Below are positions 5,333 to 28,000 of a stretch of 64,000 nucleotides of DNA, in pieces. The notes beneath the pieces were generated by a model, which saw only the letters and a list, made by a program, of their open reading frames with translations, made no database searches and was not told the DNA's origin. A program made the translations under genes and the position numbers. Each line of letters opens with the position of its first letter. Positions within the stretch are counted from its first letter, which is position 1. The DNA is from Flectonema sp. DT1601 (taxonomy: Eukaryota), in assembly GCA_964019425.1 (NCBI GenBank), contig OZ025784.1:1-64000 (forward strand). Reading direction: 5' to 3'.

Positions 5333-5338
5333 TTAAAA

Positions 5339-6113: not shown

Positions 6114-6224
6114 CTCCTATATAATTGTCAGCATTGGGGATATTTTGGGTTCTGAGGAAATTCACCAAGTCCTGGGCCAGGTACCCAGGCCAGGCCTCAC
6201 CTAATTACACACTAATTCTTCTTT

Positions 6225-7070: not shown

Positions 7071-7194
7071 GAATAGGTTTTAGAGTTTTGGTGCCAAGCT
7101 GTCTTTTTGTTATGGTTTAGACAATTTGGGTTTTAATAAATAATTCCTTTCATTTTTGCCACCTTTCTGCAATCAATGCTTTTGTAGCACCCCT

Positions 7195-9861: not shown

Positions 9862-10095
9862 GATATCCCAGGGGTAGTGGTATAACCCTCGCCCTGGGGC
9901 TGGGTGATCGCTGGTTCGACCCCCTGCCACTGCAATAACCCATCGCGCCCGTACACGCAATTAGTTCAAATCCCGCGCCCGAAGGGCGTCCAGGGTAGGC
10001 ACCTGGTACGTTAAGACTGGAGGGAAGGGAAAATGGAAGGATTTCCATAAAGAGGCTAAGAACACACAAATAAATAAATAAATAAATAAAAAAAA
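9862..10095 (+). mobile_element. tRNA(Pro)-derived SINE-like element
   Basis: Head TAGTGGTATAACCCTCGCCCTGGG resembles the tRNA-Pro at 24868. B box GGTTCGACCCC (9913-9923), core motif CGCGCC...CGCAATTAG (from 9944), (TAAA)n/poly-A tail. The cloverleaf is degenerate. Confidence 0.6.
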
Positions 10096-10098
10096 TCC

Positions 10099-10186
10099 CA
10101 GGGCTGCACAGCCGAGTGGATACCTTAAATCTCTTAAATCTCTTCGGTAGCCGTGGCAAGGGTTCAATTCCCAGGCACATTTTTTG
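10099..10186 (+). pseudogene. Degenerate tRNA-like sequence
   Basis: A-box-like CAGCCGAGTGG, B box GGTTCAATTCCC, followed by a T run. Internal CTTAAATCT duplication; no clean cloverleaf. Confidence 0.45.
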
Positions 10187-10231: not shown

Positions 10232-10300
10232 AGGGTACAAAATTGGACTTAACTTAACGCGAGCGAAGCGAGCGTAAAGTTAAGTTCAAATTTGTACCCT
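10232..10300. repeat. Inverted repeat (hairpin) with GAGCGAAGCGA loop
   Basis: GGGTACAAAATTGGACTTAACTTAACGC versus the reverse complement of the right arm, GGGTACAAATTTGAACTTAACTTTACGC (25/28). Confidence 0.85.
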
Positions 10301-10424
10301 GGATGGGTACCTAGCCAGGGAATTAAAACAGACGTGACTTGGTTGTAAAAATAATGTTTGTTCAGAAAGCTTAAAAAAAAAAAGTTGTGTGCGAGCAACG
10401 CGAGCCTGGAAGGGGTATCTCTAG

Positions 10425-10479
10425 TGCGGGTTTGCGGGTTTGCGGGTTTGCGGGTTTGCGGGTTTGCGGGTTTGCGGGT
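10425..10479 (+). repeat. Short interstitial (TTTGCGGG)n array
   Basis: About 7 units, same orientation as the long arrays. Confidence 0.93.
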
Positions 10480-10888: not shown

Positions 10889-11106
10889 TTTTTTTGAGTG
10901 TTTCACTACTGTGTTTCTCCTTCTTTTTGTTACTACTATAATTGCTTAGGCGCTGCCCTTACTGGGTGGCCGTTCACTTTTTCGAGACAATGGGGGATGC
11001 GACACGGAAACTGATTGCGCTGTGAGGCGCGGTGCGTACAGCGGGGTTCGAACCGAGGCCGATTGGGTGCGGGGGCACCACCCCATCCACTGCACTATGA
11101 CGCCCC
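10889..11106 (-). mobile_element. tRNA-derived SINE-like element, copy 1 (left direct repeat of LINE-A)
   Basis: Minus strand: A box TAGTGCAGTGG, B box GGTTCGAACCC, body, poly-A tail (T run at 10889-10895). Matches 18513-18730. Confidence 0.75.
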
Positions 11107-11185
11107 TGTATTTTTGAGTGACGAAGAAAGAAGTTTCCATTTTATCTTCCCGAAAAAAAAGAAAAAAGTTTTGGGACCACACAAA

Positions 11186-14100
11186 ATGCCTCCACGCGGC
11201 GGTCTCGGACGGCAGAGACCGACTAAATTTTGCAACCAGATGGGAGGTGAAGTACTCTCACGGAAGGAAAGGAACCGGAAAGCACACACAGAGAACGGGA
11301 ACGGTAAGAAAGACAGGAAGACGAGCGTAGACACGAAGGAACGAGACGAGTTGAGGGAGAGACTCGCACGGGATGGCCTAAGAAGGCTGGATCGGGACGA
11401 AGACAGGAAGAAGGACGAGAAGGTCCTCAAGAAAAAACAGGCAGAGCAGGAAGAAGAGAAGAACGAACTGCTGCAACAACAAGAGCTCCTCTGCAAACAA
11501 CAGAGTGAGCTAGAAGTTAACTTCCAGAAGAAACAGGAAGAGTTATTCCAAAAGCAACAGCTTGAGGAAGTACTGACTAACCATCAGCAGCAACAACTTG
11601 TCAACCAGAAACAACTGGACCATCAACAGCAACAAAACCAGGAACATCTGCATCAACAACAGAAGGCTCTTACTCAGTACGAAGATGAACTCTGTCTGAA
11701 GCAACAACAGCAAGAACAGCAACTTAGCCATCAAGTCAAAAAGCAGCAGGAAATCCAACAGCAGCAGCAACAGCAACTTGATCAACAAGTCCAACAACAG
11801 CAGGATAAGCATATACAACAGCAACAACAACTTGAGCATCAAGTCCAACAACAACATCAAAACCAACAACATAGCCAAGAGTTGTTAAACCAACAACAAC
11901 AAGAACTGCTACAATATAAAGCAGACCTACAACAGAAGCAGGAACAAATCCTGATCCAACAACAGCAGCTCGAACAGCAGCACAGCAAGGAGAAGGCTGT
12001 CGAGGATGAATCTCTCCGAAGAAGAAGATGCCAACTCGAAGAAGACCAACGCCAACAACAACAAGAACAGTCCAGGATTCAACAGAATCTGCAACTGCAA
12101 CAGGTTAGCCTGGAGGAAAAACAACAGCTGCTTCAACATCAACTTAATGTGGAGTTGGAAAAGGGCAAACTGGACCAGCAGCAACAACAACAGAGACGGG
12201 AAGAAATCAAAAAGCAGGAAGATGACCTTGAGCATCAACGACCCCAACTACAACGCCAGCAGGAGGACGAGATGGAGAAGGGTAGGAAGGAACTCCAGTG
12301 TCTCAGGAACAAGCTAGACATGGAGTTCGAACAACAGAAGCTGTGTAGCCATCAACTCCAACAACAACAAGAAAAGGAGAAAGAACAAGGGAGGAAGGAA
12401 CTGCTCCAACTTCAACGGGAGCTTGGAAAGGAGTTCGAACAGCAGCAACAAGAAGACCAGAAGTCAAAGCTAGATCTGGAACTTCAAGAAGGAAAACTGC
12501 GACAACAGCAACAGAAGCTCCAACCCCAACAAAGCAGCCTACGTCAGCAAACGCATGCAATAAGCCAACCTCCGGTTTATTACATGCAGCACCAGCCTTA
12601 TGCACCGATGCATCAAAGGCAACCGTACCCGCCGGTACCTCCGCAACAACAGGGAATTGAACAACTCCGACTGGAGCTCCAGAAGGAGAGAGAAGAGAAG
12701 GGTGAGCTGAGGAAGTTGCTCATGGAACTCCAGACTCAGCTGAAAGAACTGAGACAGGAGTTGACCTCATCGAGAGCGCAGAGAAGCGAAGAAGTGAATG
12801 AGGTCGTAGTAGCCCCGAGCCAACCACCAGTGGGGATTGCCAACTTAGTGAACGGGTTGACCTACTCTCGCTCCTACGGCCTCACCACTGATGAATCGAA
12901 GGTCAGATCAGCTGTACAGAGGAACTGCACATCCGAGTGGGAATCACTTGAAAAGAAAGCGACGCAGTCGATGAAAGCTGTTGAAAAAGCCAGACGTCTC
13001 TGGGAGAAAACCAACAAGAAGGAGAGGGAAGTGTTGAACTCCTGGGGCCTGAGGGAAGTTGATTGGAACATTCCGGTCACGAAGTTTGAGGAGGTATCGA
13101 AAGGGAATCAAGGAGTAGCCCTTGCGACGCCTTCAGAGGCAAGAGATCTTCTGGGGATGAAGCCGGAGGTTCCTGCATGGAAAACGTGCAGCGTGGTAAC
13201 GCTAGACCAAGTGAATGGACAAGGAAGAAGGGAACACGTGCTATTATCGAGCAAGGATGGAAACAAGGTACATCGCATCTTCATTCATGACCTGGGTGAG
13301 GCGGCTCTACCAAAGGGTAAGCGGGGTATTAAATCGGTGAAGGCAATAGTGACCGCTCCTAAAAGAAGGTGGAAGGATGATAAGTGGCTTGAGTTAGCGA
13401 GTAAGCCCGAGCACCTCATCACAAAAGAAATGAAGGACACACCCGGCTTCATGGAAGCGTACAACTTCAGGGTAACGAAGAGTACGGTGTCGGCGGTCAT
13501 CCGACTGAGGAAACCCGGGGCAGTTGAACTGCTAAGAACCTCCGGAAAGGATGAGAGATTCTTGTGGATACAAGACGAAGGGGAGGCTCCGAAGGATACA
13601 GTTATTTGGCTTCAGGACGAGTGCTCTTTGAAGGAGGCAGTTGAACACCCTGATTCCCTGGAATCGTTGGGATTAGTCGAAAACCCTAAAGGTTTTGGTA
13701 TCAGAGTTTCACCGGAGCTGGAAGATGTAACCAGGGAAAAACTGGGAATCCCTGCAAAGCTCCCTGAATTAGAAATCTCGGGAATTCCATTAGATGTACT
13801 TCCCCGTGAAGCGGTAGCGCTGCTGGCGAAGGATGGGTGGCATGTGAGAGCAACCGTGGATGGAGTAAGGACTGGATACAGATGGATGAGGGTGCGTGCT
13901 GAAGTGCCGGATGACGACACGGTATTAATCGACGGTAGGGCATGTACGGTTGAGGTAGTTCAAAGACAAAATCGTAAGAAGCGCCAAGCTGCTAAAGAGG
14001 TGGATGCGAAGGAGAAAACTCAGCCAACATCAACTGCAGAGAGCACACCGGAAAAAGGCCTTACCCCGCCGGAGAAGAGACGTGATCCAACAGAGGGGGA

Positions 14101-14347
14101 GGCCTCTAATCGTTGCTACTTGCGAGCAGAATTCTTATCCTTTCATGGTAAGGGGAAGGGAAAGAGACTCTGGCGGGAAGCGGGTGTGAAGATTGAGGAG
14201 AGGAAAGGAGCCTTGAAGGAAGTAGGTCCTGTAGAGCAGGTTGTGATAAAGAAAACTGTGAAGAAGTCGACGGCTGAACAGGATACGATGGAACGAAGGA
14301 TGGATCGTTTAGAGATGCTGATGACGAGATTCTTGGAAGGTAAATGA
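11186..14347 (+). CDS. LINE-A ORF1, Gln/Glu-rich coiled-coil protein
   Basis: Open frame from 11015; likely ATG at 11186 (MPPRGG). Long Q-rich coiled coil, then a domain similar to LINE-B ORF1 (LLRTSGKD...VIWL...EAV...LGLV...GIRV...ISGIP). Confidence 0.82.
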   Translation: MPPRGGLGRQRPTKFCNQMGGEVLSRKERNRKAHTENGNGKKDRKTSVDTKERDELRERLARDGLRRLDRDEDRKKDEKVLKKKQAEQEEEKNELLQQQELLCKQQSELEVNFQKKQEELFQKQQLEEVLTNHQQQQLVNQKQLDHQQQQNQEHLHQQQKALTQYEDELCLKQQQQEQQLSHQVKKQQEIQQQQQQQLDQQVQQQQDKHIQQQQQLEHQVQQQHQNQQHSQELLNQQQQELLQYKADLQQKQEQILIQQQQLEQQHSKEKAVEDESLRRRRCQLEEDQRQQQQEQSRIQQNLQLQQVSLEEKQQLLQHQLNVELEKGKLDQQQQQQRREEIKKQEDDLEHQRPQLQRQQEDEMEKGRKELQCLRNKLDMEFEQQKLCSHQLQQQQEKEKEQGRKELLQLQRELGKEFEQQQQEDQKSKLDLELQEGKLRQQQQKLQPQQSSLRQQTHAISQPPVYYMQHQPYAPMHQRQPYPPVPPQQQGIEQLRLELQKEREEKGELRKLLMELQTQLKELRQELTSSRAQRSEEVNEVVVAPSQPPVGIANLVNGLTYSRSYGLTTDESKVRSAVQRNCTSEWESLEKKATQSMKAVEKARRLWEKTNKKEREVLNSWGLREVDWNIPVTKFEEVSKGNQGVALATPSEARDLLGMKPEVPAWKTCSVVTLDQVNGQGRREHVLLSSKDGNKVHRIFIHDLGEAALPKGKRGIKSVKAIVTAPKRRWKDDKWLELASKPEHLITKEMKDTPGFMEAYNFRVTKSTVSAVIRLRKPGAVELLRTSGKDERFLWIQDEGEAPKDTVIWLQDECSLKEAVEHPDSLESLGLVENPKGFGIRVSPELEDVTREKLGIPAKLPELEISGIPLDVLPREAVALLAKDGWHVRATVDGVRTGYRWMRVRAEVPDDDTVLIDGRACTVEVVQRQNRKKRQAAKEVDAKEKTQPTSTAESTPEKGLTPPEKRRDPTEGEASNRCYLRAEFLSFHGKGKGKRLWREAGVKIEERKGALKEVGPVEQVVIKKTVKKSTAEQDTMERRMDRLEMLMTRFLEGK

Positions 14348-14380
14348 CGGCACGTAGATGGAAGGAACTGGGCTGAGACT

Positions 14381-14432
14381 CGAAGACGCCTCTTGCTGAT
14401 AGCAGGGGGACGTTGAACGAAACCCAGGGCCG
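14381..14432 (+). other. 2A-like (StopGo) ribosomal skipping peptide
   Basis: GDVERNPGP is in the ORF2 frame (14406-14432). RRRLLLIAG lies directly before it, one nucleotide out of frame at the G5 run (14405-14409). Confidence 0.85.
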
Positions 14433-17400
14433 AATAGGAGAAAGGATGGTCCTTCTTGCAAACTGAATGTAATCAGTTGGAATTGTCGCACCATCTCGAA
14501 CAAAATGGAGTTCATTGGACACATCCTGAGTAAGCTTGACCCCGACGTACTTTGCCTTCAGGAGACTTCTTGCAGGATGGCATTGTTTCATTGGAACTAC
14601 GTTTGCTACAGGAGGGATAGGCCAGGAAGGGGAGGTGGCCTGATCACTTTAATAAAACGAGGAATTCAACATGATTGCTTTGATATCTCCATACCGTCGA
14701 TGAGAGGAACCGTCGAGTCGATGGGGGTCAGAATTAACGAAGACGTAAGTATTCTCAACATCTACTCCCCACCGAGCTCGAGGATAAATTTTGAACTATT
14801 CTCCCTGAAACGTGTTGGCAAGTTCATTCTCGCTGGTGACTTCAACGCACACCATAGGTACTGGTCCAAGAAAACCGACGTAAAAGGATGTGACCTTCTC
14901 AACTGGACAGGGCAAGAGGACCTCCTGATTGCGAACCCGCCAGGTCTAGCGACACTGCCGAGACATGGGACCTCGCCCGATCTGATCCTGCACCACGAGG
15001 AGATTCAACTGCTTAACTTTGAGCTGGTAGGTGAAGGAATTGAGCACGGTTCAGATCATTCACCACTCTCTGCTACCTTCGATACACTCTCACCCCTTGA
15101 GCCTTCGGGCAACCACGCGACGAAGAGATCGGTCTGGGACTTCAATACAGCTGATTGGTACTCATATGAACATGAACTAGACTACAGGTTTGGAAAGGTA
15201 AACAACTCTGCGAGCATTGGGAGAAGAGCGGTAACGTTCAACAGAATCGTTCTTGGAGTAGCGAAGAGGTACGTTAGGAGAAGGCTTCGGATCAAAGGGA
15301 AGAGAAGAAGAATGTGGAACGCTTCCACCCCTGATACCAAGCGTGCGAAGGGAAAATTTATCGCTGAACGGCTAGCAAAAGGTGAAGGCTTTGCATATGC
15401 GTTCAAAAAGATAAAGGACCTTGAGACGGATGAAGGACGTGAAATTCACATTCCGGAGTTTGACGAGAACCAACTACCTGCGAAGTTCTTGGAACAATTT
15501 GTTAAGACCCCGACAAAACGTAAACTAGGACCTCCGAATACGAAGAGCAGCGACTTCGCCAAAATCGGAGGGAATCTAACAATGACTGAACTGAAGCGAG
15601 CCATCAAGAAGGTAAGGCCCGGGAAAGCACCAGGTCCAGATGGAATCCATGGGATAATGTTGAAGAACTTATCGGTGATAGGAATGGATTTCCTCCTGGC
15701 GTTATTCAATGAATCGTGGCCAACGTCAAAGGTACCGAGGATCTGGAAGGAGGGTCTTATCAAGCCAGTTTACAAACCAGGAAAGCCAAAAGATAAGATC
15801 GCAAGTTTCAGACCGATCACGTTGACCTCGGTGGTGGGTAAAGTACTTGAAAGAGTGATTTATGATAGGTTGATGTATTGGCTTACCCAGAACAATGCCC
15901 TGTCGTCTATCCAGGCGGGTTTTAGAAGAGGAAGGAATACGTGTGAGCAGATTTCAATGTTAGTCAACGCTCTTCATGAGGCCAGTGAAAAGAACAAGAG
16001 CTCTGTTCTGCTGTCGTTCGACTTCACGGAAGCATTTGATAGAATTAATCATGAGAAACTGATCAAGAAGATGAAGAACATGCGTATTCCCTCCCCGTTC
16101 ATTGCATGGGTAGTTGACTTCCTGAAGGGCAGGCAGGCAAGAGTGAGTGCGAATGGCAACCTTAGCTCCTACAGAACGGTAACGAGGGGGGTTCCCCAAG
16201 GATCGATTATCGGTCCGCTGCTATACCTGATTTATGTTGATGACCTGGCGAAGTTGTTGGAGAAGACTGGCTCAGTTTCGGCTCTTTATGCAGATGACAC
16301 CGCTTGTGTAGTCTCTGATAAGGACGTTAATTTAACCAATAAGAAGGCGCAATGGATCCTTGGACTTGTGGATAGCTGGTGCAAAACCAATGATATGGCA
16401 CTGTCCGTCTCTAAGACATGTGGTATGCCTGTGCGCTGCCCGAAGGATATCTACTGGAGACTGGGCTTCCCCAGGACTGCAAAGGATAATTATTACGTTG
16501 TAAGCAGGGGGGATCTAGCTAAGATGATCAGACCGAATGAGTTTGGAAGGCCAATTCTGGGTAGTGGAGAAACCATTCTCAAGGTGGATGATACCGAAGT
16601 TGCTAATACGAAGGACCTGCTTGCAATTTTTCCTGATGGATCAAGTAAGCTGAGAGTAAAGTTGTTAACCGCAGTACTGATGCCGATGGTAGACAGCGTT
16701 AAATACCTGGGGGTGCACATTGATGGTGATTTATCTTATGGAACACAGGTCGGAAAGATGCTGGATGAGACCAGGAAGGGTCTTGCACTCCTGGGGAAAC
16801 TAGAACAGTATGATTTTGATTTTAAGACGCTGTGCATGGTCAAGAACCTGTACATACTTTCAAGGCTGTCATATGGGCTGGAGAGCTTCGGCCCTTTCCT
16901 ATCTGAGGGTCAGATTGATCTTGTGGACTTGAATCTGAAGAAGATTGCGAGAAGGATAACGGGTTGCAGCATCTACACCAGGTCTCTCCCACTGCTCTTG
17001 GAGGCGAACATGCTCCCTTTGAAACTGATAATAGAAAAACAGGCCAGAACTGCCCTGTTTAGATATAGATCGCTGAAGTGGGTACGTTCGACGAACCGAA
17101 TAGCGAAAGGATTCTGGAGTTCTAAGTTGCCGCAGGAAGATTGTAACATCGCCCTCCAAGGAATAGTTCAACCTGACAGCATCGAACCCTGGGCGGATGT
17201 ACCAAATCTAGAGATATCCTGTGGGTATGGTCATAACAAGACCGGTGATGCAGATGTGGATAGGAACAAATTTGAGGAATACTGCAGGGACCTAGTCCCT
17301 TGCAACTCGGCTATATATGTGGACGGCTCACATGATCCTGCTAACTACACTGCGGGTGCGGCAGCAGTACAGGTCTCACCAACTGAGAGAACGATGTCGT

Positions 17401-18236
17401 CAAGACTTGTAGCTACTGAAAGCAGCTACAAGGCTGAACAAGTAACACTCAAACTGCTGATGAGAGAAATTGGCAAAGCTGACTCGATCTTGGGTCCCAG
17501 GTCAGGTATTACCAGAATCTTCAGTGACTCGAAATCCAACCTGGAGGAACTCAATGGAGGGATTGTTGCCCAGAGGAAGTTGAACTCTCTGTTAATACTG
17601 GAAAGCATTAGGGATCTGAAGACACAGGTGCATCTCCAGTTTATCCCGGCCCATGTGGGGATTGAACCACACGATAAGGCTGATAAGCTGGCCAAAGAAG
17701 TCTCGAAGGATGCCGAAAGTAAACCGGTCTCAACGACCATGGATTTCTTCGCCCACAAATCAAGGGTAGCAAGGGAGTCTCACAGGAAGTTGATAGGAAA
17801 GATGATGGAAGCCTCCGAGAAGGCAAAGCCTCCAATGAAACGGGTGATGCTCAGACAGTATCTGGAGGCGACCGGAGGATTGAGAACTGCCAGATATCCG
17901 AAAGACATGCTGAGGGCTTCGGAAGTAAGAATTGCACAATTCAGAACGGGTTCACACCCCTTGCTGAGAGACAAAGGCGTACAACTGAAGTGCCCTTTTT
18001 GTAGACGGACGGACTCATCACCTAGACACTTGATGTTTAACTGCATGAACTCTGCTCTGGTACGCATCAGAAATGGAACAATTGGATCTGTCATGGAAGA
18101 AGCGAAGATTTCAAAGAAGGAACACAGCCTGCTATTTATGTTCGCTACGAGGAACTTACATTCCCTCGCTGGCTTCATATGGCATTTAGAACAATGGACG
18201 GCAACAAGCTGTTATCAGAAGTTACTATCTTTTTAG
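14403..18236 (+). CDS. LINE-A ORF2: AP endonuclease, reverse transcriptase, RNase H, C-terminal Cys/His motif
   Basis: The frame is open from 14403 and includes ISWNCR upstream of the ATG at 14505. Motifs LCLQET, GDFNAH, SDHSP, KAPGPDG, FRPITL, GVPQGS, YADD, KYLGV, YVDGS, FSDS, FIPAH, CPFC...H...C. Confidence 0.93.
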   Translation, partial: QGDVERNPGPNRRKDGPSCKLNVISWNCRTISNKMEFIGHILSKLDPDVLCLQETSCRMALFHWNYVCYRRDRPGRGGGLITLIKRGIQHDCFDISIPSMRGTVESMGVRINEDVSILNIYSPPSSRINFELFSLKRVGKFILAGDFNAHHRYWSKKTDVKGCDLLNWTGQEDLLIANPPGLATLPRHGTSPDLILHHEEIQLLNFELVGEGIEHGSDHSPLSATFDTLSPLEPSGNHATKRSVWDFNTADWYSYEHELDYRFGKVNNSASIGRRAVTFNRIVLGVAKRYVRRRLRIKGKRRRMWNASTPDTKRAKGKFIAERLAKGEGFAYAFKKIKDLETDEGREIHIPEFDENQLPAKFLEQFVKTPTKRKLGPPNTKSSDFAKIGGNLTMTELKRAIKKVRPGKAPGPDGIHGIMLKNLSVIGMDFLLALFNESWPTSKVPRIWKEGLIKPVYKPGKPKDKIASFRPITLTSVVGKVLERVIYDRLMYWLTQNNALSSIQAGFRRGRNTCEQISMLVNALHEASEKNKSSVLLSFDFTEAFDRINHEKLIKKMKNMRIPSPFIAWVVDFLKGRQARVSANGNLSSYRTVTRGVPQGSIIGPLLYLIYVDDLAKLLEKTGSVSALYADDTACVVSDKDVNLTNKKAQWILGLVDSWCKTNDMALSVSKTCGMPVRCPKDIYWRLGFPRTAKDNYYVVSRGDLAKMIRPNEFGRPILGSGETILKVDDTEVANTKDLLAIFPDGSSKLRVKLLTAVLMPMVDSVKYLGVHIDGDLSYGTQVGKMLDETRKGLALLGKLEQYDFDFKTLCMVKNLYILSRLSYGLESFGPFLSEGQIDLVDLNLKKIARRITGCSIYTRSLPLLLEANMLPLKLIIEKQARTALFRYRSLKWVRSTNRIAKGFWSSKLPQEDCNIALQGIVQPDSIEPWADVPNLEISCGYGHNKTGDADVDRNKFEEYCRDLVPCNSAIYVDGSHDPANYTAGAAAVQVSPTERTMSSRLVATESSYKAEQVTLKLLMREIGKADSILGPRSGITRIFSDSKSNLEELNGGIVAQRKLNSLLILESIRDLKTQVHLQFIPAHVGIEPHDKADKLAKEVSKDAESKPVSTTMDFFAHKSRVARESHRKLIGKMMEASEKAKPPMKRVMLRQYLEATGGLRTARYPKDMLRASEVRIAQFRTGSHPLLRDKGVQLKCPFCRRTDSSPRHLMFNCMNSALVRIRNGTIGSVMEEAKISKKEHSLLFMFATRNLHSLAGFIWHLEQWTATSCYQKLLSF

Positions 18237-18512
18237 TATATATCATACTCATACATCACTCCTAATTCATCTCCTAATAACTCTCTGAGGACATCCGTAG
18301 AGCTTCATAGCTCGCAGGTAACCCAGTGGTCTTTGGCCACCGTCTCCGTATTGATCATTCGCTTTGTACTTACAGTGTCGTGAGCTTCCTATCCGGGGAA
18401 GTCCTCCAACGGACTCACAACAGTTGCACTCGTTGTTGCTTATTTACTTAGTTAAAAAATAAGAAGAGCGAGTATGCTCAGAAAGAATAAAAACAAAGTA
18501 GAAAGATTTTTT

Positions 18513-18730
18513 TTTTTTTGAGTGTTTCACTACTGTGTTTCTCCTTCTTTTTGTTACTACTATAATTGCTTAGGCGCTGCCCTTACTGGGTGGCCGTTCA
18601 CTTTTTCGAGACAATGGGGGATGCGACACGGAAACTGATTGCGCTGTGAGGCGCGGTGCGTACAGCGGGGTTCGAACCGAGGCCGATTGGGTGCGGGGGC
18701 ACCACCCCATCCACTGCACTATGACGCCCC
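18513..18730 (-). mobile_element. tRNA-derived SINE-like element, copy 2 (right direct repeat of LINE-A)
   Basis: Matches 10889-11106 at offset 7624; the T run here is longer (18507-18519). Confidence 0.75.
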
Positions 18731-19042
18731 CAAAAGACAGGGGGGATGTTTTTTTTTTTTTTTTTTTTTGTGTGCACCACGACCCGTGAGTCTGTGATGC
18801 TGATTGCGCTGTTAGGCGCGGTTGTTCTTTTTCTTTCTTTCTTTTTTACTTTCTTTGTTTTGGGGGTTGGGGGTGGGGATCCCGTAGGCTTCGTATCTCC
18901 TTTCTTTGTTTTGATAACTTAAAACTAATACTACAGAGTAAATTGTCCACTTGGACGTCTTCGGATGTGTTGCTAAATTGCCATCGGTACTTCCTAGTCT
19001 TGTAGGCTGCGGTCTTGATCTTGACATTTGTCGATTATAAGA

Positions 19043-22000
19043 TTACCTTCCTGTTAGTACTGCTAGTTCGTCCAAGGCAGTGACAAAGCTTAACATCCTT
19101 CGTTGGTTATTCGGTAAGTAACAGTCTTCTAGAGAACATGGTTCTTCTCCTTCTTCGTTTATCATAGGATCGATGTACTTGTCTCTTAAGAATTCCACGC
19201 ACCAGTGTTCACATAATAAGGCCACATGATGTGGTGTTGCCCTTGCATCTTTACAGAAGATGCATTTCTCATTTTGTCCCTTGAGTTTCAAGGATCTGCA
19301 GTGTCCCACTCTAAAGCGTGACATGATCACTTCTTCCGGTCTGGTGAGCTCATCAATGTATGGAGGGTGCCTTACCTCTCCTGGCCCTAACCAGTTCTCC
19401 CGTTTTCTCCGCTTGTGGAAGGTCATCATCGTTCCCATATCAAGTTGAGCGGGTAGTTGTTTAATAATTATATCCTTATAAGGTGGATCATCCTTCAGGC
19501 CTGCTGCATACTTCGCAAGCTGGTCTGCTACTTCATTGTATCGTACATTTCTGTGCGCTGGCACATACTGTACGTTAATTTGTACACCCTTCCTCTCTAG
19601 CTTCATAGCTAACTTCCAGATGTCTTTATTCATTGGGGACCTTTGTTTGTATGGTCCTTGTTCCAATGCCTGCATAACTGACATCGAATCAGTCAACAGG
19701 TGCGTCGTTGCTGTTGGACATTCTTGTTCCTCCTTCGCTGCTTGAACAAGATTCTCCATCGCCAATTTTACAGCGATCTGTTCAGTCCTGTAGGAGGAAC
19801 CCGCCACCGGTATTTTGTATCCAAGTAGACACGTCTTGCCTTTGTCTACTATAACCACAGCAGCAGCTGCATTCGTCATGTAGGTCTTAGACTTGTGTCT
19901 TATCGACCCATCCGTGTAAACTCTCGTGTCTTGAGCAGGTAAGTCTGCTTCACTCCGTTTCGCCTCGTCTTTGTCACCTGGGTAAGTGAACTTCATCGCA
20001 TTAGTTTCTTTCCACGGTGGTAGCGTGTAGTGCTCCGGATTTACTTCTTGGCTTATGATACTTCTGTTTATGTCAAGACCAGGGATCCCAGATACATAGT
20101 AATTCCAGACAGTCCATCCCCATATCGTTTTTGGTGGGTTCTCTTCCATTCTTTTTGTTTTTGTCAGTTCATGTGCTGGTAGGTGTGGACTGAGCTTGAA
20201 TCGTTCATATGTTCTGCACATCTTGTATTGGATGTGTTCCTTTAGTCGTGGAGTGTCTGCCTCTTCGTACAGTCTTGTTAATTCTGTGCTCCGCAGGCAT
20301 CCAGTGACCAGCCTCACTGTTCTGTTTATAATTAATTCCAGTTGCTGGAGAAAGTTGCTTGTTAGTACCCAAGCAAAGCTCTCAACACCATAAAGGATCC
20401 TTGCTAGGACCACCGTCACTAGGATGCTAATCAGCGTTCTCTTCCTACAGCCTATCCGGGTAAGTCTAGTCAGTAAGCCAAGACCTCTGGATGCAGCTAT
20501 CATCATTTTCCCCATCTGTGACTCGAATGTCAGGTTCTCGTCATAGTGTACTCCCAGGTATCTTACAACTTTCGTCTTATGTACTTTCCGTCCAGTTGCA
20601 AGTGCGAATCCGTGAAGTCCTGGCCCCACTGTTTCCAACATCTTATCTATTTCCCCCCGATTGTGAACTTTCTTTAGTTGGGGGAAGCGCTGAGCATTCA
20701 TCTTTAGTGTTTTTATTACTGTTGGTTTGTTCGGCAGCTTTGTCTTTATTCTATGTGGCGGCACCACGTACAAGTGAGTGACAGCATAGTCTTCCTTCTT
20801 TTCTACTGTTGTTGTGCCATCGTCTTTCACAAGGTTTCTTATCTGTTCTGCTGTGGCCACAACATATTTAAAAGTATGCTCTTCAGAGTACACCACAACT
20901 GGGGACTTGTCCTGCGTTCTGTTCGGCTTCACATGAATGTATTCAGTTTTGCCAGGGTTCTTATTAATTTTTATTTGGGAGTCTAATGCCCAATCCTCAA
21001 AGATTCGTACCGCTTCATTGACTCGATCCTCCAGACGGTTGATGGTATCGGATGCGATAACTATCCCAACATCGTCAGCAAAGACGGTTGGCTCAAACTT
21101 CTCCAGTTTCTCTATTAAATCGTTTATAAATATCGAAAAGAGCTGGGGGCCCAGCACGCTTCCTTGTGGTACACCCACTTGTATGTTTTGGAAATTACCT
21201 TTTGTTCCGTTCACCCTCGTTGTGATTTTTCTTCCGGTCAGATAGTTTTGTACCCACCTCAGATACCTTGTTGGTAACCCTGCGGTCATCATCTTGTCCA
21301 TAAGAGTTTTTGGCTGTACCGCGTCAAATGCCTTTTGTAGATCAAAGGTGATTAGTATTGCTTCCTTTCCCCTGTCCCTGGCACTGAGAAGCCGGTCAGT
21401 TACGATGCATAGGTTTTCTGTAGCATCTCGTCCGCGTTTGTAGGCCGCCTGTCTTGGGTTCATCGTCTTATTTAATAAATGATGCATGCGTTCAACGATC
21501 ATCCTCTCAAAGAGCTTCGCAATAGAAGAGGTGAGTGTTATCGGTCTATAAGAAAGAACTTGCTTTTTGTCCTTATCTGGTTTTAATATTGGTATGACCA
21601 TACCGCTTTTCCAGCACCTTGGTACAGCTGATCGTTGCCATGACAGGTTAAACAGTCGCAACAGTTGTTTGAGAAAGGCTTCCGGCAGTTGTTTGATCAT
21701 AGAATTCCAGATCTTGTCGGGTCCCGGTGCTTTCTTTTCCTTCGTTTTTGTGAGCTGTCTCACCAGTTCCGACATCCCAAATTCCTCATCATTTTCATCC
21801 GGTCGTTCCGAAATTGTCTCCATTTCCCCATCTTTCGGGAATTGGTTTGCGTACGTTTCAGTAAAAGCATTTGCTATTTCCTGTGAATCAGTTAATTCCC
21901 TCCCTTTGTGTGTTATGTTACTGATCGTATGATCAATCGTTCTACCTTCTAGCTGTTTGACTTTCCGAAAGGCCCACCGATAATCTTTTCCCGACATATC

Positions 22001-22963
22001 ACATTCGATAATGTTCTGTTTTACCTTTCGGATTCCTTCTGCTATAGCATCCGTAGTTGTTTTATCCGGATCCGTCTCAGTCATTAACTCCTCAAGTTCA
22101 GGGTCCCTCACTGTGAAGGCACCACCTACTTCTTTGTTATATCCTGGTATGGCCCTTCCCGCTGCCTTTAATATTTCATTGTTTATCCTTGCTCCCAGTT
22201 TTTGGACTGTTTTTATATGTTCCAGCTTGGGTGCTGCAGCTTGCAATATTCTTCTGTAGTATTCCCAGTCGGCACAGTGCCATTTCCATTTCCAATTGTA
22301 AGTTTTCTGATGTTGCTCTTGAGTCTTTATTTCTTCGATGATTATTTTGAGTGGCTGATGGTCGCTACCCCACCCTCTCATAATTTTAACTTCTGCTTCC
22401 ATCGTGTTGTCCAAGGCTACAATGTCTGGGGATGTCAGGCTTAGCGGTCTCGTGTGTTGTTGAGGGTTGTTAATAACTTTCATCGCAGCTTCCAGTGACC
22501 AATTATAGAAGCTTATACCAGTAGTGTTCTTATTTCCATTAGACCATGTCGGATGGTGTCCATTTATATCACCTGCAATTAATGTGCCGAGTTCTGATTT
22601 AATCTTCCAGGTTGTTGCCTTGATTTCAGGCGGGTGGTAAACATTATGTATTATAAGAGGTGGATTAGACTGTAATTCTACTGATAGTATCTCAGTTTGG
22701 TCAAATGAGATGTCGTTGAGTTTAGTAATCGCATTTTTAAGATCATTCCTTACCAATGTAATGAGCCCACGATGTCCCATCTTGGTGGTGCTGTCTCTTC
22801 TGTAAGTTTTGTACCCGTCAACAGAGAAGGGCTTGTCATCGGTTAACCATGTTTCTTGTAGTAGTATTATTTCAGGTTTTTCTTCTTTGAGAGCCCAATT
22901 CAGTTTGAAGTAGTTTTCTGGTTTCAGAACTGAGCGAATGTTATTTGACCAAATCACAATCAT
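19043..22963 (-). CDS. LINE-B ORF2: AP endonuclease, reverse transcriptase, RNase H, Cys/His motif
   Basis: Motifs WSNNIR, LLQETW, GDINGH, SDHQP, KAPGPD, YRPITL, GVPQGS, FADD, RYLGV, YTDGS, LTDS, YVPAH, CIFC...H...C. Confidence 0.95.
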   Translation of the reverse strand: MIVIWSNNIRSVLKPENYFKLNWALKEEKPEIILLQETWLTDDKPFSVDGYKTYRRDSTTKMGHRGLITLVRNDLKNAITKLNDISFDQTEILSVELQSNPPLIIHNVYHPPEIKATTWKIKSELGTLIAGDINGHHPTWSNGNKNTTGISFYNWSLEAAMKVINNPQQHTRPLSLTSPDIVALDNTMEAEVKIMRGWGSDHQPLKIIIEEIKTQEQHQKTYNWKWKWHCADWEYYRRILQAAAPKLEHIKTVQKLGARINNEILKAAGRAIPGYNKEVGGAFTVRDPELEELMTETDPDKTTTDAIAEGIRKVKQNIIECDMSGKDYRWAFRKVKQLEGRTIDHTISNITHKGRELTDSQEIANAFTETYANQFPKDGEMETISERPDENDEEFGMSELVRQLTKTKEKKAPGPDKIWNSMIKQLPEAFLKQLLRLFNLSWQRSAVPRCWKSGMVIPILKPDKDKKQVLSYRPITLTSSIAKLFERMIVERMHHLLNKTMNPRQAAYKRGRDATENLCIVTDRLLSARDRGKEAILITFDLQKAFDAVQPKTLMDKMMTAGLPTRYLRWVQNYLTGRKITTRVNGTKGNFQNIQVGVPQGSVLGPQLFSIFINDLIEKLEKFEPTVFADDVGIVIASDTINRLEDRVNEAVRIFEDWALDSQIKINKNPGKTEYIHVKPNRTQDKSPVVVYSEEHTFKYVVATAEQIRNLVKDDGTTTVEKKEDYAVTHLYVVPPHRIKTKLPNKPTVIKTLKMNAQRFPQLKKVHNRGEIDKMLETVGPGLHGFALATGRKVHKTKVVRYLGVHYDENLTFESQMGKMMIAASRGLGLLTRLTRIGCRKRTLISILVTVVLARILYGVESFAWVLTSNFLQQLELIINRTVRLVTGCLRSTELTRLYEEADTPRLKEHIQYKMCRTYERFKLSPHLPAHELTKTKRMEENPPKTIWGWTVWNYYVSGIPGLDINRSIISQEVNPEHYTLPPWKETNAMKFTYPGDKDEAKRSEADLPAQDTRVYTDGSIRHKSKTYMTNAAAAVVIVDKGKTCLLGYKIPVAGSSYRTEQIAVKLAMENLVQAAKEEQECPTATTHLLTDSMSVMQALEQGPYKQRSPMNKDIWKLAMKLERKGVQINVQYVPAHRNVRYNEVADQLAKYAAGLKDDPPYKDIIIKQLPAQLDMGTMMTFHKRRKRENWLGPGEVRHPPYIDELTRPEEVIMSRFRVGHCRSLKLKGQNEKCIFCKDARATPHHVALLCEHWCVEFLRDKYIDPMINEEGEEPCSLEDCYLPNNQRRMLSFVTALDELAVLTGR

Positions 22964-24789
22964 GATTGGCCAGTGTTGTTGTTTCTATTCGTACTTGTTG
23001 TTCGACCGAGACCAATAGTGGCTTCCATCCGCTTCACCGATTCTACCAGACTTGTGATGGCTATGGCCATGTTGTTATAGTTCTTTTCGTTTTTATTAGC
23101 GGCCTCCGTCAGGGTTGCGACCACCTTCGTTAGATTGTAGAGTCCCTCCTCTAATCTTTTCTGCAGATCTGTAACATCATTCTTAAGCTGTGCCATCATG
23201 CTGTCAGTCTTTTCTCTGAGTTCCTTAACACTGCTCTCAGAGTTTTGTACTTCAGTTGTTGGATTTTTCGGAGTCGGTAACGTCTTTTTGACTGCGGCTG
23301 CATACGAAGTCTTGGCCTCGCGGTATTTCACAACGACGGGTTTCTTCACTTCCACTTCCACACTTTCTAATTTTTCAATTAGGATGACTACCTCACCACA
23401 TTGGACAAGTTTCGTTTCCGGCTTCTTGTCCAACGCGATGATGAAGTCACCCCGATCCATCCTTACAAATTTAGACCTCAGTCCCAACTGCGATAGAATA
23501 TTCTGGAGCCTGTTGCCCCAGCTGTAAGGCGCTCCGCTGAGACGGTGTAGCCCTTCGCCGTATACAGTGCTGGCGTACTTCCCAGCTCCCTTCCTTACTT
23601 TGTCGACGTCCTTTGTTTTAATCACTCTCAACCCTATTTTGCCGTGGCTGATGGTGAGTCCGTAACAGAGGTCTTGTTGGGCTTTCAGAATGCCAACTGC
23701 CTCATCATTCGTCGTCTTGCGGTCCAGCCACACGGTACTGTACTTGGTTGCTGACTGTCCCAGCGTTTGTTTGATTCGGAAGTAGACCTTGTCTGTTCCC
23801 GAGTTCTTCAGTAACTTTACTGCTGAGTCTACATCCGTTGGCAGGATTGTTAACTCCGCAAAGTCTCCCTCCACTGATCTGTACGATCTTTGATCCACCC
23901 TTCCGTGTTGTGCAACAACCGCTTTTATCATGGCTGTTACTGCTGAGGGGCTTTCCACCTGCGCCTTGGAGATGTCCTTCTTTGTCATCCAGGCTATCAG
24001 TTCATGTGTCTCCGGTGGGTTGACCTTTTTGGCGATGGTCAATGTTGGTCTGTGGGTCGTGCCTGACATTGTAACGAACCACCAGCTTCTAATTTTTAAT
24101 TGTCCATCGAATTGGACTGGCGTCTGAATCTGACTGCAGTCAGTTGCGTGTTGTAGGGCACGTTTTGGAGGTGGTCGTGTGAACACTATCGTCAGTTGTT
24201 GCGTTTTGCTAGCCTTTTCGAAGTAGTCTTCGTCCAGGTTTCTTCCTTGTTGAGATAATGCAAGTATAATGCCGTTGGTCTTGCTGTTGAGGTCATCAGT
24301 TGGCTGGAGTATTTTGCATTTAAAATGCTCCTTGTTAAACTTTGGTGGTGGTCCATTCATCATCACCGTCGATCTTCTTTGTGCCTCTTTGATTTGAGGG
24401 CTTGATTGGGGTGCCTCATTTGATGGAGGGCTTTGTTTTGTTTTTAAAACACTTCCTTGTGCCTCTATGTTTTGAGGGCTTATTTGAATTGCCTCTTTGT
24501 TTTGAGGGCTTGTCTTTGTTTGAATTGCCTCCTTGTTTTGAGGGCTTGCTTGAAATGCTGCTGGAGGTCCTACTGCGGTCACCTCTACTGAGATTCCTTC
24601 TGGCACTTCTGGAGAGTCCATCTCCATTTCTTCCTGTTGCTGGGACTCTATCTCCTGCTGAGACTCCTCTTCTTCTTCCCGGATCTCATTTCTGGCTTGT
24701 TCCCTCATCATCTTCGCCTCTTTCCTTTCTCTTTCTCTCCTTTCCGCTGCCCTTCTGTCTTGCGGACGCATTGCTTTCTTACCAGCCAT
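22960..24789 (-). CDS. LINE-B ORF1
   Basis: Likely ATG at 24789 (MAGKK). SPQNKEA-type short repeats, a domain shared with LINE-A ORF1, a SYAAAV motif and a C-terminal coiled coil. Confidence 0.82.
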   Translation of the reverse strand: MAGKKAMRPQDRRAAERRERERKEAKMMREQARNEIREEEEESQQEIESQQQEEMEMDSPEVPEGISVEVTAVGPPAAFQASPQNKEAIQTKTSPQNKEAIQISPQNIEAQGSVLKTKQSPPSNEAPQSSPQIKEAQRRSTVMMNGPPPKFNKEHFKCKILQPTDDLNSKTNGIILALSQQGRNLDEDYFEKASKTQQLTIVFTRPPPKRALQHATDCSQIQTPVQFDGQLKIRSWWFVTMSGTTHRPTLTIAKKVNPPETHELIAWMTKKDISKAQVESPSAVTAMIKAVVAQHGRVDQRSYRSVEGDFAELTILPTDVDSAVKLLKNSGTDKVYFRIKQTLGQSATKYSTVWLDRKTTNDEAVGILKAQQDLCYGLTISHGKIGLRVIKTKDVDKVRKGAGKYASTVYGEGLHRLSGAPYSWGNRLQNILSQLGLRSKFVRMDRGDFIIALDKKPETKLVQCGEVVILIEKLESVEVEVKKPVVVKYREAKTSYAAAVKKTLPTPKNPTTEVQNSESSVKELREKTDSMMAQLKNDVTDLQKRLEEGLYNLTKVVATLTEAANKNEKNYNNMAIAITSLVESVKRMEATIGLGRTTSTNRNNNTGQS

Positions 24790-24867
24790 TTTATTTTTTT
24801 TGGATGTGACTAAATAAATAAGAGTTTCAAAAATAAATAAATAAATAAAAAGTTTCAAAAAAACAAC

Positions 24868-24939
24868 GGCTTAGTGGTCTAGTGGCATGATTCTCGCTTT
24901 GGGTGCGAGAGGTCCAGAGTTCGATTCTCTGCTGAGCCC
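24868..24939 (+). tRNA. trnP: tRNA-Pro (anticodon TGG)
   Basis: Cloverleaf: acceptor GGCTTAG/CTGAGCC, anticodon arm CTCGC-TTTGGGT-GCGAG, T arm CAGAG-TTCGATT-CTCTG; TTTTT terminator follows. Confidence 0.97.
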
Positions 24940-25048: not shown

Positions 25049-28000
25049 TCACAGTTGAAGGATGACTACAAACAATGTGCTTAAAAGAACAAACAAGTTT
25101 GGTGCCAAAGTTGATGATGACGCTGGAGGATCAACTGTTTCAATAGTGGGGGTTGGTGAATCTTGGATGGTGACCGGCACCTTCGTGAAGGGAACTGCTG
25201 TTGGCCCTTCCGTCATTTCAACTGGCTGCTCAGTTCCAGGCGCTGCACTTGCCACAACAGAGAGTGTGACTGTTGGCGAACTGTTAGTTGGAATCTCGGT
25301 TGGTGCAGTTGTCTTTGCTGCCGTCTCAGAAACTGTTTGGTTTTTTCATGCTTTGTGGAGACCATGTGACCAATGAGGTAAAAATACACACCAATTACTA
25401 ATGAAGGGTCAGCGTTGCTAAACATTCCGTTGGGAGCCTTCCTCAGAACGGAATCTTTTGATAGTAGATCGTCGGAGATGCTTTGCTTTATTGTCTCGCC
25501 TATCAGAGAAGTGTTGATAGAGATAACTGTTTGGACATCAAATTCAGACATTGCAAAAACTGAATTTGGATTAAGTGGTGAAAGAGGCAAAAAGGGTCGA
25601 AAGTTAACGCAGTTGGTAGAATTGCAGTCAGTTGCTTTTCTAAAATCTTTACAAATAGATGGAGATTGCCTGTCAGAATCAGTAACTCCTCCACTCCATC
25701 TGGTGACAGGCAGTGCGCAGATGTATCGAAGGGTGACACTCTGGAGGATGACAACTTTCAGCAAGAGAAGCTCAAACATTTTTGACTCAAAGTCATCTCT
25801 CTTCAATCCCTCAGCAAAAATAGCCACATCGGATGCAGTCCCAAATGACCCCAATGACAATCCAGTTATCAGCGGTGGGGGTTTTAGTGCAAGAACACTT
25901 ACTCCAGTCACAATAAATGAATTTGTGTCAAAAGTTTTCCCCTCACAGTCATGATAGGTGTCATTGCTCCCACTGACACACTTAAAGTGAAGCCTCATTG
26001 AAGGACAGTTGTTGTTAAAAACCAACCCTTTGAAGTTTGCAACTCCGCCTGACACTCGCATAGTAATCGAAGACAGCACGTCGATAAATTGACTCCCTTG
26101 AGTATCGTTTTTGTAAACACCAACAAATGACCCGTGACTGAAAGGAACACAAGAACTGCCAACAACAACAGTCGACTGATAATCACCTGACACAGTTTCA
26201 CCTTTCTCATCAAGCACTGCAATCGAAATATGAAATTCTGTTTCTGATTTGACTTCAGACATTACCATTGGGCAGACGGAATTATGGCACTGTTGATTCT
26301 CAATTCCCAAACTCTTAATTTTTTGGATGCTAATCCTTGCTGAGAAAGCGTCTTCATCACCGAGATCCAATGTAGTGAATAACAGTGTGGTTGGAACACT
26401 TAGTGCTCTGCCGTGATACACCACCTCTCCAATGTGATGCCTCCCATTTACTAATGTGAATTCAAGGCCCGCACTAGACAACCTGTGGTTTATCGTCCAA
26501 GAGGAACTACTGCATCCAAGCGCTGATATAGCTGCGAAAGGACATGAAAATGATGCTGTGCAATGTTGATATAAATTATCAATATTAACACAAGGAATAA
26601 TAGTCGGATTAATAAATACAACAGCACTGCTACCCCTATCTTCAGAGTGACGAACAACTGTACCTGTAATGTCAACCGCTTCGACCCACATGTCAAACGG
26701 CACTCCGAAGACCCACGAGATACTAGTTGTGTGGTCAATAACTCGCTCTAATACTTCAGTTTGAGCTGGAAAAAGACCTCTTACACGAAGTCGCGTCGCC
26801 TGTCTTACAAATATCAGAGGGCCGATGTCTGATATCGAGCCAAAACCAACATTTGCTACACTGCTGCCTGACACAACTGCGTCTGTCGCCTCTACAGTAA
26901 AATACCAGGGAACGTGTTCACAGAGATTGCTGCTGCCATCACTGAAATTACATCTGCGAGTAGGTTCAGAAGCATTAAGGGTAAATATTATGATTCCGTT
27001 TTTTGATATGGCTGTCTGTATTGGCCAGGTAGACTGTTCTGAAGAAGTGATATTGCGGTAGCCGGTTAATTTGACCACCATTTGATTGTCTCCTAATACA
27101 CGCTGTCCATCTGATGTGAGAACTTGAATTGTGACATCCGATCCAACACCAACGACAGCGGCCGACTCCCCGTTGTCAGCTGTCGCCGTAAGATTGCTGA
27201 AGTTTGCCTCAGACCTCGGTATTATTGCAATCTTTGAAGAAGACCGAACAGTAACATCCAAGGTTGAAGTCGGATTCACAGTCCCCATTCCAATAGGCAG
27301 ACCGCTGACAGCACCTGGAGAGATACTGCACACTCCATCGCGGGTAAAGTATCCTTTTATTTCTGCGACATCTCCTCCCTCTAAAACTGTGACTTGACAA
27401 CCAGCGTCTGTGAGCACTTCGCAATTAAAACAATCTTGAGGTGACATAAAAGTGCCAGTCACAGTAAGCACTTGACGGCTCCAGGAATTCGACAGCTGTC
27501 CTAAACCAGAATGTGTTCGGGTTGAGTCCCAGGCCCTCAACATGAGAGAGACTGAGCGATTTGTTACCGAGGGTGCTGACATTAACGAACTGGACACTCT
27601 GACGGGTTCTAAAGTATTAGAGCTGCTCCAATCCCACAGCGACACCACGCTCTGTTTGAACTTTAGAGTAATTGACTGGTCCGTTGCGTTCAGCAGGTCA
27701 AGAGGAGGAGTTATAATAACCTCACACGAACAGCTTTCCTGTATTGACAAGGCTCTAACAAAGAATTTCGCTTTTCCTTCGACAAAGAATGCCTCCGATG
27801 AAACAGTCACGTCGCATGCCAAAGATACAACTTGAGATGCATCAGAACTGCAGGTAACAGAAGCCCTGGCTGGTGATGTTATTTTCGAGTAAGAGAGATA
27901 CCAAGTGGTGTCGGATGACAGAGCATTGGGCTTTCTCGCAATTGAATAAACTAAGAAGTAGCAAGACTGACCAGTAGTCAACTCTGCTGTACGAGAACAA

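Follow-up and report, generated by a model that had tools for sequence, protein, structure and literature searches.

Retrotransposons that target genes that RNA polymerase III (Pol III) transcribes come from yeasts and social amoebae only in the available part of a review of the subject (PMC5911963). TRE5-A, TRE5-B and TRE5-C of Dictyostelium discoideum are L1-type, two-ORF non-LTR elements that lie 34–95 nt upstream of tRNA genes (PMC5006619; PMC5391098; PMC5911963) and are inserted in the opposite orientation to the tRNA gene (PMC5911963). Published insertion windows upstream of the tRNA span 37–90 nt for TRE5-A and 39–64 nt for NLTR-B (PMC5006619), and TRE5-A also uses non-tRNA loci with A and B boxes and forms tandems (PMC5391098). 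The dictyostelid elements Dp_NLTR-A and Pp_NLTR-B likewise sit upstream of tRNA genes and bear an RNase H, but the paper was unable to assign them to a known clade with RNase H, ingi for example (PMC5006619). The ingi/L1Tc clade of trypanosomatids bears a hallmark sequence of 77 nt, Pr77. Its elements combine APE endonuclease, reverse transcriptase (RT) and RNase H with a 5′ HDV-like ribozyme and a 2A-like peptide (excerpts of PMC12278014, PMC4035085 and PMC3708506). The literature searched held neither a report of tRNA targeting by ingi nor a Pol III-gene-targeted retrotransposon from a euglenozoan.

The 64-kb window (the whole stretch of DNA that was analysed) holds two LINEs whose 5′ ends face Pol III-type units. 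LINE-A and LINE-B are two young LINE families with APE, RT and RNase H in a host that is likely a diplonemid, unrelated to diplomonads. We put at roughly 60% the probability that these ingi-related LINEs, together with their SINE, target a window about 45–80 nt upstream of Pol III units and insert so that the 5′ end is turned towards the gene. An earlier note on this DNA had described two different LINEs, and their ORF2 products, both with APE, RT and RNase H, are indeed only 26% identical. On the minus strand, LINE-B ORF1 (22960..24789; 609 aa, cluster of 18) ends in a stop codon that overlaps the start of ORF2 (19043..22963; cluster of 31), in which the RNase H gives a Pfam match at 1.4e-12 and the endonuclease two Pfam matches, one below cut-off. 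Its 3′ end (18749..18822; fold z −3.9) comprises a 23-mer, two hairpins and a poly(A), and candidate 6-nt target-site duplication (TSD) copies lie at 18744..18749 (3′) and 24802..24807 (5′). LINE-A, on the plus strand, consists of an ORF1 with a Q-rich N-terminal half (11186..14347; 1053 aa, cluster of 23) for which a Pfam search returned no match, a linker with a 2A-like peptide (14348..14432), and an ORF2 (14505..18236; cluster of 42) whose RNase H match is weak (Pfam 8e-4, below cut-off). The 2A-like peptide is divided between two frames at a G5 run (14405–14409); it is whole and in frame with ORF2 in three sister families (P0369, P0383 and P0205), and none was seen in LINE-B. Neither a poly(A) nor a clear TSD was found in the LINE-A 3′ region (18237..18506, approximate end). 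In an RT tree of 47 rows, which included no TRE sequence, LINE-A (100/99) and LINE-B (100/100) each form one clade and are weakly sister (91/65); the fork that joins them with 20 other rows and two kinetoplastid RTs, assumed to be ingi although their source names are silent, is weakly resolved (88/90). The term ingi-like is reasonable, although weakly resolved in the tree; as in the ingi/L1Tc clade, a single protein unites APE, RT and RNase H.

The sole ARAGORN tRNA call in the window, presumably the target, is a tRNA-Pro(TGG) gene (24868..24939, plus strand; Rfam 54 bits) with a T5 terminator behind it. The start codon of LINE-B ORF1 at 24789 lies 79 nt from tRNA-Pro, and that of LINE-A at 11186 lies 80–83 nt, by choice of first base, from a minus-strand tRNA-like head, both in line with the earlier note. 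The head-to-head geometry holds; the distance of about 80 bp does not, as it was taken from start codons and the elements themselves would end at 66 nt, because the 5′ UTRs in other copies are only 12–13 nt, a length that we infer from the protein sequences of those copies. The LINE-B 5′ UTR (24790..24801, minus strand) would be about 12 nt and A-rich, judging by KNK-M junctions common to P0199 and P0198, and a search of this end for a ribozyme or other known RNA found none. LINE-A appears to begin with an HDV-like ribozyme (11173..11232, plus strand) that overlaps the ORF1 start and is predicted to form P1, P2, P3, L3, a P1.1 of GG and the J4/2 C. The descriptor, which was written after the site had been seen, finds one site in 128 kb and none in 60 shuffled windows, and the match to the CPEB3 family reaches 21.6 bits, below the 35-bit cut-off; GPHK-M junctions in the proteins of other copies place the same 5′ end independently. 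The 5′ ends would thus fall at 11173 for LINE-A and about 24801 for LINE-B, each separated by 66 nt from the start of a Pol III-type unit and by 74–76 nt from its T8, with tRNA-Pro as the neighbour of LINE-B and a 218-nt SINE-like repeat as that of LINE-A.

Self-comparison revealed two minus-strand copies of this repeat, one on either side of LINE-A and 100% identical over 218 nt: copy 1 (10889..11106, A7 end) and copy 2 (18507..18730, with the 218-nt match at 18513–18730, A13 end). The head of copy 1 carries an A box (T8 at 11097) and a B box (11054), and the repeat has no T4 terminator. What had been called a tRNA-like gene thus retains its boxes but not the status of a tRNA gene, with no ARAGORN or Rfam call and a head that is the 5′ part of the repeat. 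We rejected a stable tRNA or known RNA for the whole 218 nt (no call by Rfam or by ARAGORN at thresholds 80–95, fold z 0.38, no terminator) and disfavour a TSD or LTR of LINE-A, since the flanks beyond the heads differ and the repeat is antisense with its own A tail. From its sequence it resembles a tRNA-derived SINE, although Rfam found no parent tRNA. A 23-mer is common to the repeat and the LINE-B tail (18800–18822; 22/23 nt, 0 matches in 100 shuffles) and is kept in the tail of a LINE-B sister family (P0447); mobilization of the SINE by LINE-B is likely. Like tRNA-derived SINEs that are paired with a LINE, the repeat has a head with A and B boxes, lacks an internal terminator, ends in an A tail and has a sequence in common with the LINE 3′ end. 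In those SINEs the shared sequence is at the 3′ end, whereas the 23-mer comes immediately after the head and some 120 nt ahead of the tail. TSDs are short, at 6 nt for LINE-B and 5 nt for the candidate of SINE copy 2; a 10-nt match to the 3′ end of the SINE itself (11111..11120, minus strand) is either a candidate TSD of copy 1 or what is left of the tail of a different element, the same tail being found at the end of other copies (P0344 and P0456).

The identity of two copies that bracket LINE-A, for which no TSD was found, would also fit a chance arrangement or subtelomeric rearrangement, in which the repeats are a local duplication or a recombination scar joining the parts. We consider this very unlikely: the SINE tail peptide is present on two other contigs (P0344 and P0456), the copies differ in A-tail length and 5′ flank, and the geometry recurs at a second locus (P0185, below). 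Under targeted insertion, the order of events at tRNA-Pro can be suggested. A gap of 18 nt (18731–18748) separates the end of the LINE-B poly(A) from the second SINE head (18730), as noted earlier, and subtracting LINE-B leaves SINE copy 2 head-to-head with tRNA-Pro at 79 nt. SINE copy 2 is likely to have inserted first and LINE-B later, between the SINE and the tRNA.

Whereas the DNA analysis covers the window, flanks of other copies were read from N-terminally extended ORF1 proteins. The upstream extension of one LINE-A copy (P0185) back-translates to an antisense tRNA-Val 44 nt from the element end; this flank is back-translated protein and not DNA, and the copy is presumed to come from the same assembly. 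It shows 15 of 15 features of a tRNA 5′ half in antisense, a score reached by 2 of 300 shuffles. An estimated 700 stretches of prokaryote genomes match the pattern, where about 9 would be expected. Of 124 fetched matches, 115 fall within a tRNA on the same strand, which is tRNA-Val in 114 cases, and they begin at its position 7 (104 matches) or 8 (11). Codons outside the pattern fit anticodon positions 35–36 in 104/104 and position 37 in 100/104. These data point to a second LINE-A locus that probably faces tRNA-Val at 44 nt. Two other full-length junctions could be read outside the window, and neither shows a tRNA: P0199 (LINE-B, 81-nt flank) has 13/15 features and P0468 (LINE-A-type end, 93-nt flank) 12/15. 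Because the P0199 flank lacks a tRNA, LINE-B targeting is supported in the window only. Finding one of three junctions within 100 nt of a tRNA has a chance of about 0.5% at the tRNA density of the window, rising to about 5% if insertions are restricted to one tenth of the genome. Scores of 14/15 in P0372 and P0447 equal the true tRNA-Pro control, and at least 14 is reached by 27 of 300 shuffles; P0447 was rejected as a tRNA-facing flank as it is a LINE-B-type tail. An overhang in P0143 that resembled an antisense T-arm (11/11) was also rejected, with 0 of 7 natural matches in tRNAs. Head-to-head insertion upstream of Pol III genes, as first proposed, thus gains the antisense tRNA-Val and is weakened by the two tRNA-free junctions; a fixed distance of about 80 nt is not supported, and the three measured element ends, at 44, 66 and 66 nt, all lie within published TRE5 windows.

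Those two junctions speak for the main rival, which dispenses with factor tethering: elements favour poly(A) tails and A/T-rich DNA that is accessible, and pile up and survive at open, A-rich gene-cluster boundaries and subtelomeres, where tRNA genes also lie. Eight truncated copies follow directly after the poly(A) of another element with little or no spacer, junctions explained at least as well by plain A-tail insertion or template jumping, and the locus itself is flanked by telomere-like arrays on one side and, on the other, by host ORFs that occupy the minus strand for 38 kb. In kinetoplastids, regions of Pol II termination are often marked by tRNA genes (PMC2695483; PMC6597758), and L1Tc/ingi build up in strand-switch regions (PMC4035085). 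Such a pile-up does not, however, predict that three junctions share one orientation and fall within 100 nt, and on the sense strand of the element the LINE-B junction is rich in T and not in A. We regard it as unlikely, though the strongest of the alternatives. Against targeting, distant ORF1 relatives in this lineage are located in protein-coding genes. Wider searches returned no related loci in viral contigs and 16 distant metagenome loci (25–46% identity) with 0 tRNAs, which are uninformative for this lineage.

In such targeting these LINEs would resemble TRE5 without being TRE5 elements, which are characterized by an ORF1 protein that binds TFIIIB and by insertion that depends on the B box. 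Both window junctions (one with a SINE as target) and one of the three outside junctions occupy a TRE5-type position, about 35–95 nt away in opposite orientation, and LINE-A at the SINE recalls the tandems and non-tRNA A/B-box loci of TRE5-A/B/C. Unlike TRE5, whose ORF2 encodes APE, RT and a zinc finger, LINE-A and LINE-B possess RNase H; their 5′ UTRs contrast with the modular one of TRE5-A, and LINE-A adds the 2A-like peptide and predicted ribozyme. For TRE5-A, targeting has been proven; for LINE-A and LINE-B, it is what we infer. RNase H is shared with Dp_NLTR-A and Pp_NLTR-B, compared here by description only, whose hosts are amoebozoan. LINE-A carries the ingi/L1Tc traits of APE-RT-RNase H, ribozyme (predicted) and 2A-like peptide (split), and LINE-B only the first; both differ from ingi/L1Tc in a separate large ORF1, and LINE-A does so too in the overlap of its predicted ribozyme with the start codon. 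Their partner is tRNA-headed, unlike RIME and NARTc, each of which is a shortened form of its LINE. Yeast Ty1 and Ty3 also insert upstream of Pol III genes (described in part of PMC5911963), but are LTR elements that use an integrase, an unrelated chemistry.

By analogy with TRE5-A, the ribonucleoprotein would be tethered to DNA-bound TFIIIB/TFIIIC, and APE would nick just outside their footprint before target-primed reverse transcription. The predicted ribozyme would excise LINE-A RNA from a longer Pol II transcript, and LINE-B, which here runs in the same direction as the host gene cluster, could be co-transcribed with it. The SINE, through its own A and B boxes and putative Pol III factor binding, could act as a target itself. 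More tentatively, as a possibility that we hold to be somewhat less than even, tRNA-upstream targeting may have arisen independently in Euglenozoa, in two deeply diverged ingi-related LINE lineages, with a tRNA-derived SINE that serves as cargo and as decoy target alike; every further SINE would provide one more Pol III landing pad, building feed-forward stacks of retroelements at gene-cluster boundaries, and the start-codon-overlapping ribozyme would free LINE-A from any transcript running through it. If Pol III-gene targeting does occur here, a convergent safe-haven strategy would reach a third eukaryotic lineage and ingi-related LINEs, and the elements would offer a probe for the position of divergent euglenozoan TFIIIB/TFIIIC on DNA. 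Diplonemid gene clusters are parted by repeat-rich spacers (PMC10161547), which such targeting may help to explain.

Kinetoplastid snRNA genes use a divergent tRNA gene as an external Pol III promoter. The earlier note had offered the same role here; under this reading the divergent tRNA gene or the SINE drives the LINE, and head-to-head copies are the expressed ones. The short 5′ UTRs would suit this arrangement, and an upstream tRNA gene enhances TRE5-A promoter activity (an excerpt of PMC5911963). We find it highly improbable: runs of T4 or longer on both sense strands (6 in LINE-B; 9 in LINE-A, the first at nt 56) would stop Pol III, the predicted ribozyme already explains the LINE-A 5′ end, the stretch that holds it may itself act as promoter, like that of L1Tc (PMC4035085), and a promoter role does not put new copies beside tRNAs. 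A Pol II boost from the neighbouring tRNA or SINE could coexist with targeting.

The only tRNA gene that ARAGORN calls in the 64-kb window, with Rfam concurring, is tRNA-Pro(TGG) at 24868-24939. Two LINEs, each encoding APE, RT and RNase H, accompany it: LINE-A on the plus strand (ORF1 11186-14347, ORF2 14505-18236) and LINE-B on the minus strand (ORF1 24789-22960, ORF2 22963-19043), with 26% identity between their ORF2 proteins. An earlier note had placed both head-to-head with a tRNA or tRNA-like gene, and its distances (79 and about 80 nt from the ORF1 starts, 18 nt from the LINE-B poly(A)) were right when remeasured in the window. The nearest named relatives of ORF2-A and ORF2-B are Flectonema neradi transcripts (50-60% identity across the RT region), which makes a diplonemid host likely. 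Clusters at 90% identity on long ENA contigs comprise 23 ORF1-A, 42 ORF2-A, 18 ORF1-B and 31 ORF2-B proteins, beside several sister families. The members listed (16 of 23 for ORF1-A, 16 of 18 for ORF1-B, at most 15 for each other cluster) fall on 87 contigs of different lengths totalling 36 Mb; because the same lengths recur from cluster to cluster, we infer these to be one assembly. In the RT tree, which kept all 47 rows, A and B form one clade each and are weakly sisters (91/65), with no resolution of their link to two kinetoplastid RTs.

Flanks of other copies were read from cluster proteins whose gene call begins upstream of the usual ATG, the extra N-terminal residues being the encoded flank of another copy. 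Among the members listed, GPHK precedes the start at four junctions in three other proteins (P0185, P0454 twice, P0468), and the preceding codon can end in G at each, which puts the predicted LINE-A 5′ end at 11173. Rfam independently reports a weak CPEB3-ribozyme match at this point, scoring 21.6 bits where the cut-off is 35, with an E value of 0.13 over 26 kb and 0.001 over 201 nt. An HDV-like descriptor hits a single site, 11173-11232, in the whole window and nothing in 60 shuffles of it, a lenient control because the descriptor was composed with the site already seen. Such ribozymes free L1Tc and R2 RNA from co-transcripts (PMC4035085). Ahead of the LINE-B start, the listed members P0199 and P0198 have only KNK or KKNK in common, which would put the LINE-B 5′ end close to 24801. 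LINE-B is bounded on both sides by a 6-nt repeat (24802-24807 and 18744-18749). With these 5′ ends, the gap to the first base of the neighbouring tRNA gene or repeat would be 66 nt for both LINEs, and that to its T8 74-76 nt. Neither a TSD nor a poly(A) could be identified for LINE-A, whose flanks may therefore derive from two different loci. At 14345-14432, 20 open in-frame codons after the LINE-A ORF1 stop run into a 2A-like peptide that passes into the ORF2 frame for its second half, with a G5 run at the switch; ribosome skipping combined with either stop readthrough or reinitiation is possible.

The 'tRNA-like gene' of the earlier note does contain A and B boxes and is not called as a tRNA; it forms the head of a repeat 218 nt long, present in the window as two 100% identical minus-strand copies (10889-11106 and 18513-18730) that end in A7 or A13 and lack a T4 run. 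Directly behind the head, 22 of 23 nt are shared with the LINE-B 3′ UTR. This motif has three matches in the window versus none in 100 shuffles, folds as a hairpin in the LINE-B tail and is kept in the tail of a sister family (P0447); on two further contigs the repeat's own tail can be read just before truncated LINEs (P0344, P0456). The repeat is best read as a young SINE mobilised by LINE-B. With LINE-B removed in silico, SINE copy 2 faces tRNA-Pro head-to-head at 79 nt. Two more degenerate A-box/B-box sequences lie on the plus strand at 9858-9935 and 10096-10180, the latter with a T run behind and (TAAA)n ahead as at tRNA-Pro; ARAGORN and Rfam recognise neither.

A candidate independent locus emerged from P0185, a LINE-A ORF1 on another contig with a 32-residue extension. 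In antisense this extension can satisfy 15 of 15 tRNA 5′-half features, alone among 14 overhangs scored, in a lenient test that 2 of 300 shuffles also pass and in which the window's tRNA-Pro scores 14 in all three frames. Because of this leniency and a register picked by eye, a degenerate 27-nt pattern was searched in public DNA. It matches three viral stretches and an estimated 700 prokaryote-genome stretches versus about 9 expected, the estimate resting on 11 of 64 parts scanned. Among 124 matches fetched, 115 lie inside a same-strand tRNA (114 of them Val), with tRNA position 7 or 8 as their start. The codons that the pattern omits agree with anticodon positions 35-36 in 104/104 cases, position 37 in 100/104 and position 34 in 0/104, the last being expected for a eukaryotic AAC anticodon; acceptor positions 2 and 3 fit in 2/104 and 0/104. 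The predicted neighbour of the P0185 copy is therefore tRNA-Val(AAC), 44 nt away. At the full-length 5′ junctions of P0199 (LINE-B) and P0468, roughly 75-90 nt of flank contain no tRNA start. A tRNA is thus predicted at one of three full-length junctions with sufficient flank outside the window, a sample that is small and biased one way or the other because only open-frame flanks with a start codon are readable.

The earlier note had offered targeting of Pol III genes or, after the snRNA arrangement, use of a divergent gene as promoter. Pol III transcription of the LINEs from a divergent tRNA gene or SINE is very improbable, because T4+ runs occur on the sense strands of both; targeting gains from the predicted tRNA-Val and loses from the two tRNA-free junctions. 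We favour, at about 60%, a mechanism in which Pol III initiation factors would tether the LINEs, and target-primed reverse transcription would insert them in a window of 45-80 nt with the 5′ end facing the gene. The tethering is proposed by analogy with TRE5-A, whose ORF1 binds TFIIIB and which requires the B box (PMC5911963, PMC5391098). The main rival, a preference for open A/T-rich boundary DNA, is less probable; it draws on the locus having telomere-like arrays on one side and a series of minus-strand host ORFs on the other, and on kinetoplastid tRNA genes often marking Pol II termination regions (PMC2695483, which in the part available shows clustering, not the snRNA arrangement; PMC6597758). 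At least eight truncated copies (P0407, P0447, P0456, P0344, P0191, P0333, P0411 and, by four residues only, P0180) come right after the tail and poly(A) of another element, with the same orientation and almost no spacer. Such tandems would be expected from stacking at a single target (PMC5391098), and also from template jumping or insertion into A tails.

In mode of working, upstream of tRNA-type genes in similar windows, the tethered system proposed here resembles the social amoeba elements TRE5 (37-90 nt) and NLTR-B (39-64 nt) (PMC5006619). It is not TRE5, because these elements, unlike TRE5, have RNase H and, in LINE-A, carry ingi-like marks, a 2A-like peptide and a predicted ribozyme. No euglenozoan case of a tRNA-targeted retrotransposon turned up in the openly accessible literature searched, outside Repbase. 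The D. papillatum genome paper, in the text available, leaves element analysis for later (PMC10161547); seven supplementary files, possibly without the repeat section, yield nothing relevant, and the available part of a trypanosomatid mobilome survey (PMC12278014) names no such tRNA targeting.

Distant ORF1 relatives form in-frame fusions with BspA-type LRR or papain genes, so association with tRNAs is not a trait of this ORF1 group as a whole. One family follows differing host-like N-termini at one junction motif (P0408, P0461 and P0481 from ENA; P0415 and P0483 from F. neradi), with BspA-type LRR matches in P0408 and P0461, which suggests that the element inserts at a specific sequence in a multicopy gene family or that the fusion is domesticated. 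Another (P0413, P0475, P0476, P0472, P0478) has the same start point behind two papain-family paralogues and an unrelated N-terminus, and is possibly a protein-gene-targeted LINE. Rearranged copies include P0468 (LINE-A-type 5′ end joined to LINE-B-type ORF1), P0454 (LINE-A 5′ end doubled) and P0194 (ORF1-B with an ORF2-like C-terminus).

Arrays whose 8-nt unit is G-rich and may be an unusual telomeric repeat, together with an element interrupting them, occupy 1-262, 262-5517, 5516-6115 and 10424-10478. The interrupting element has split direct repeats (262-625 = 820-1183; 643-821 = 5339-5517) and ORFs of 466 and 918 aa, in clusters of 5 and 4 members, the larger ORF with a weak RT-RNase H match. 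Its layout resembles TATE/VIPER (PMC12278014), and no recombinase was identified. The subtelomere-like region also holds a diverged 330-nt duplication (6228-7087), a 32-nt satellite (7196-8460) and a 69-nt near-palindrome (10232-10300). A 4390-aa minus-strand frame at 25213-38385, which starts like a signal peptide and lacks a Pfam match, probably encodes a surface protein. From 25213 to 63759 all long ORFs lie on the minus strand, except one nested 158-aa ORF.
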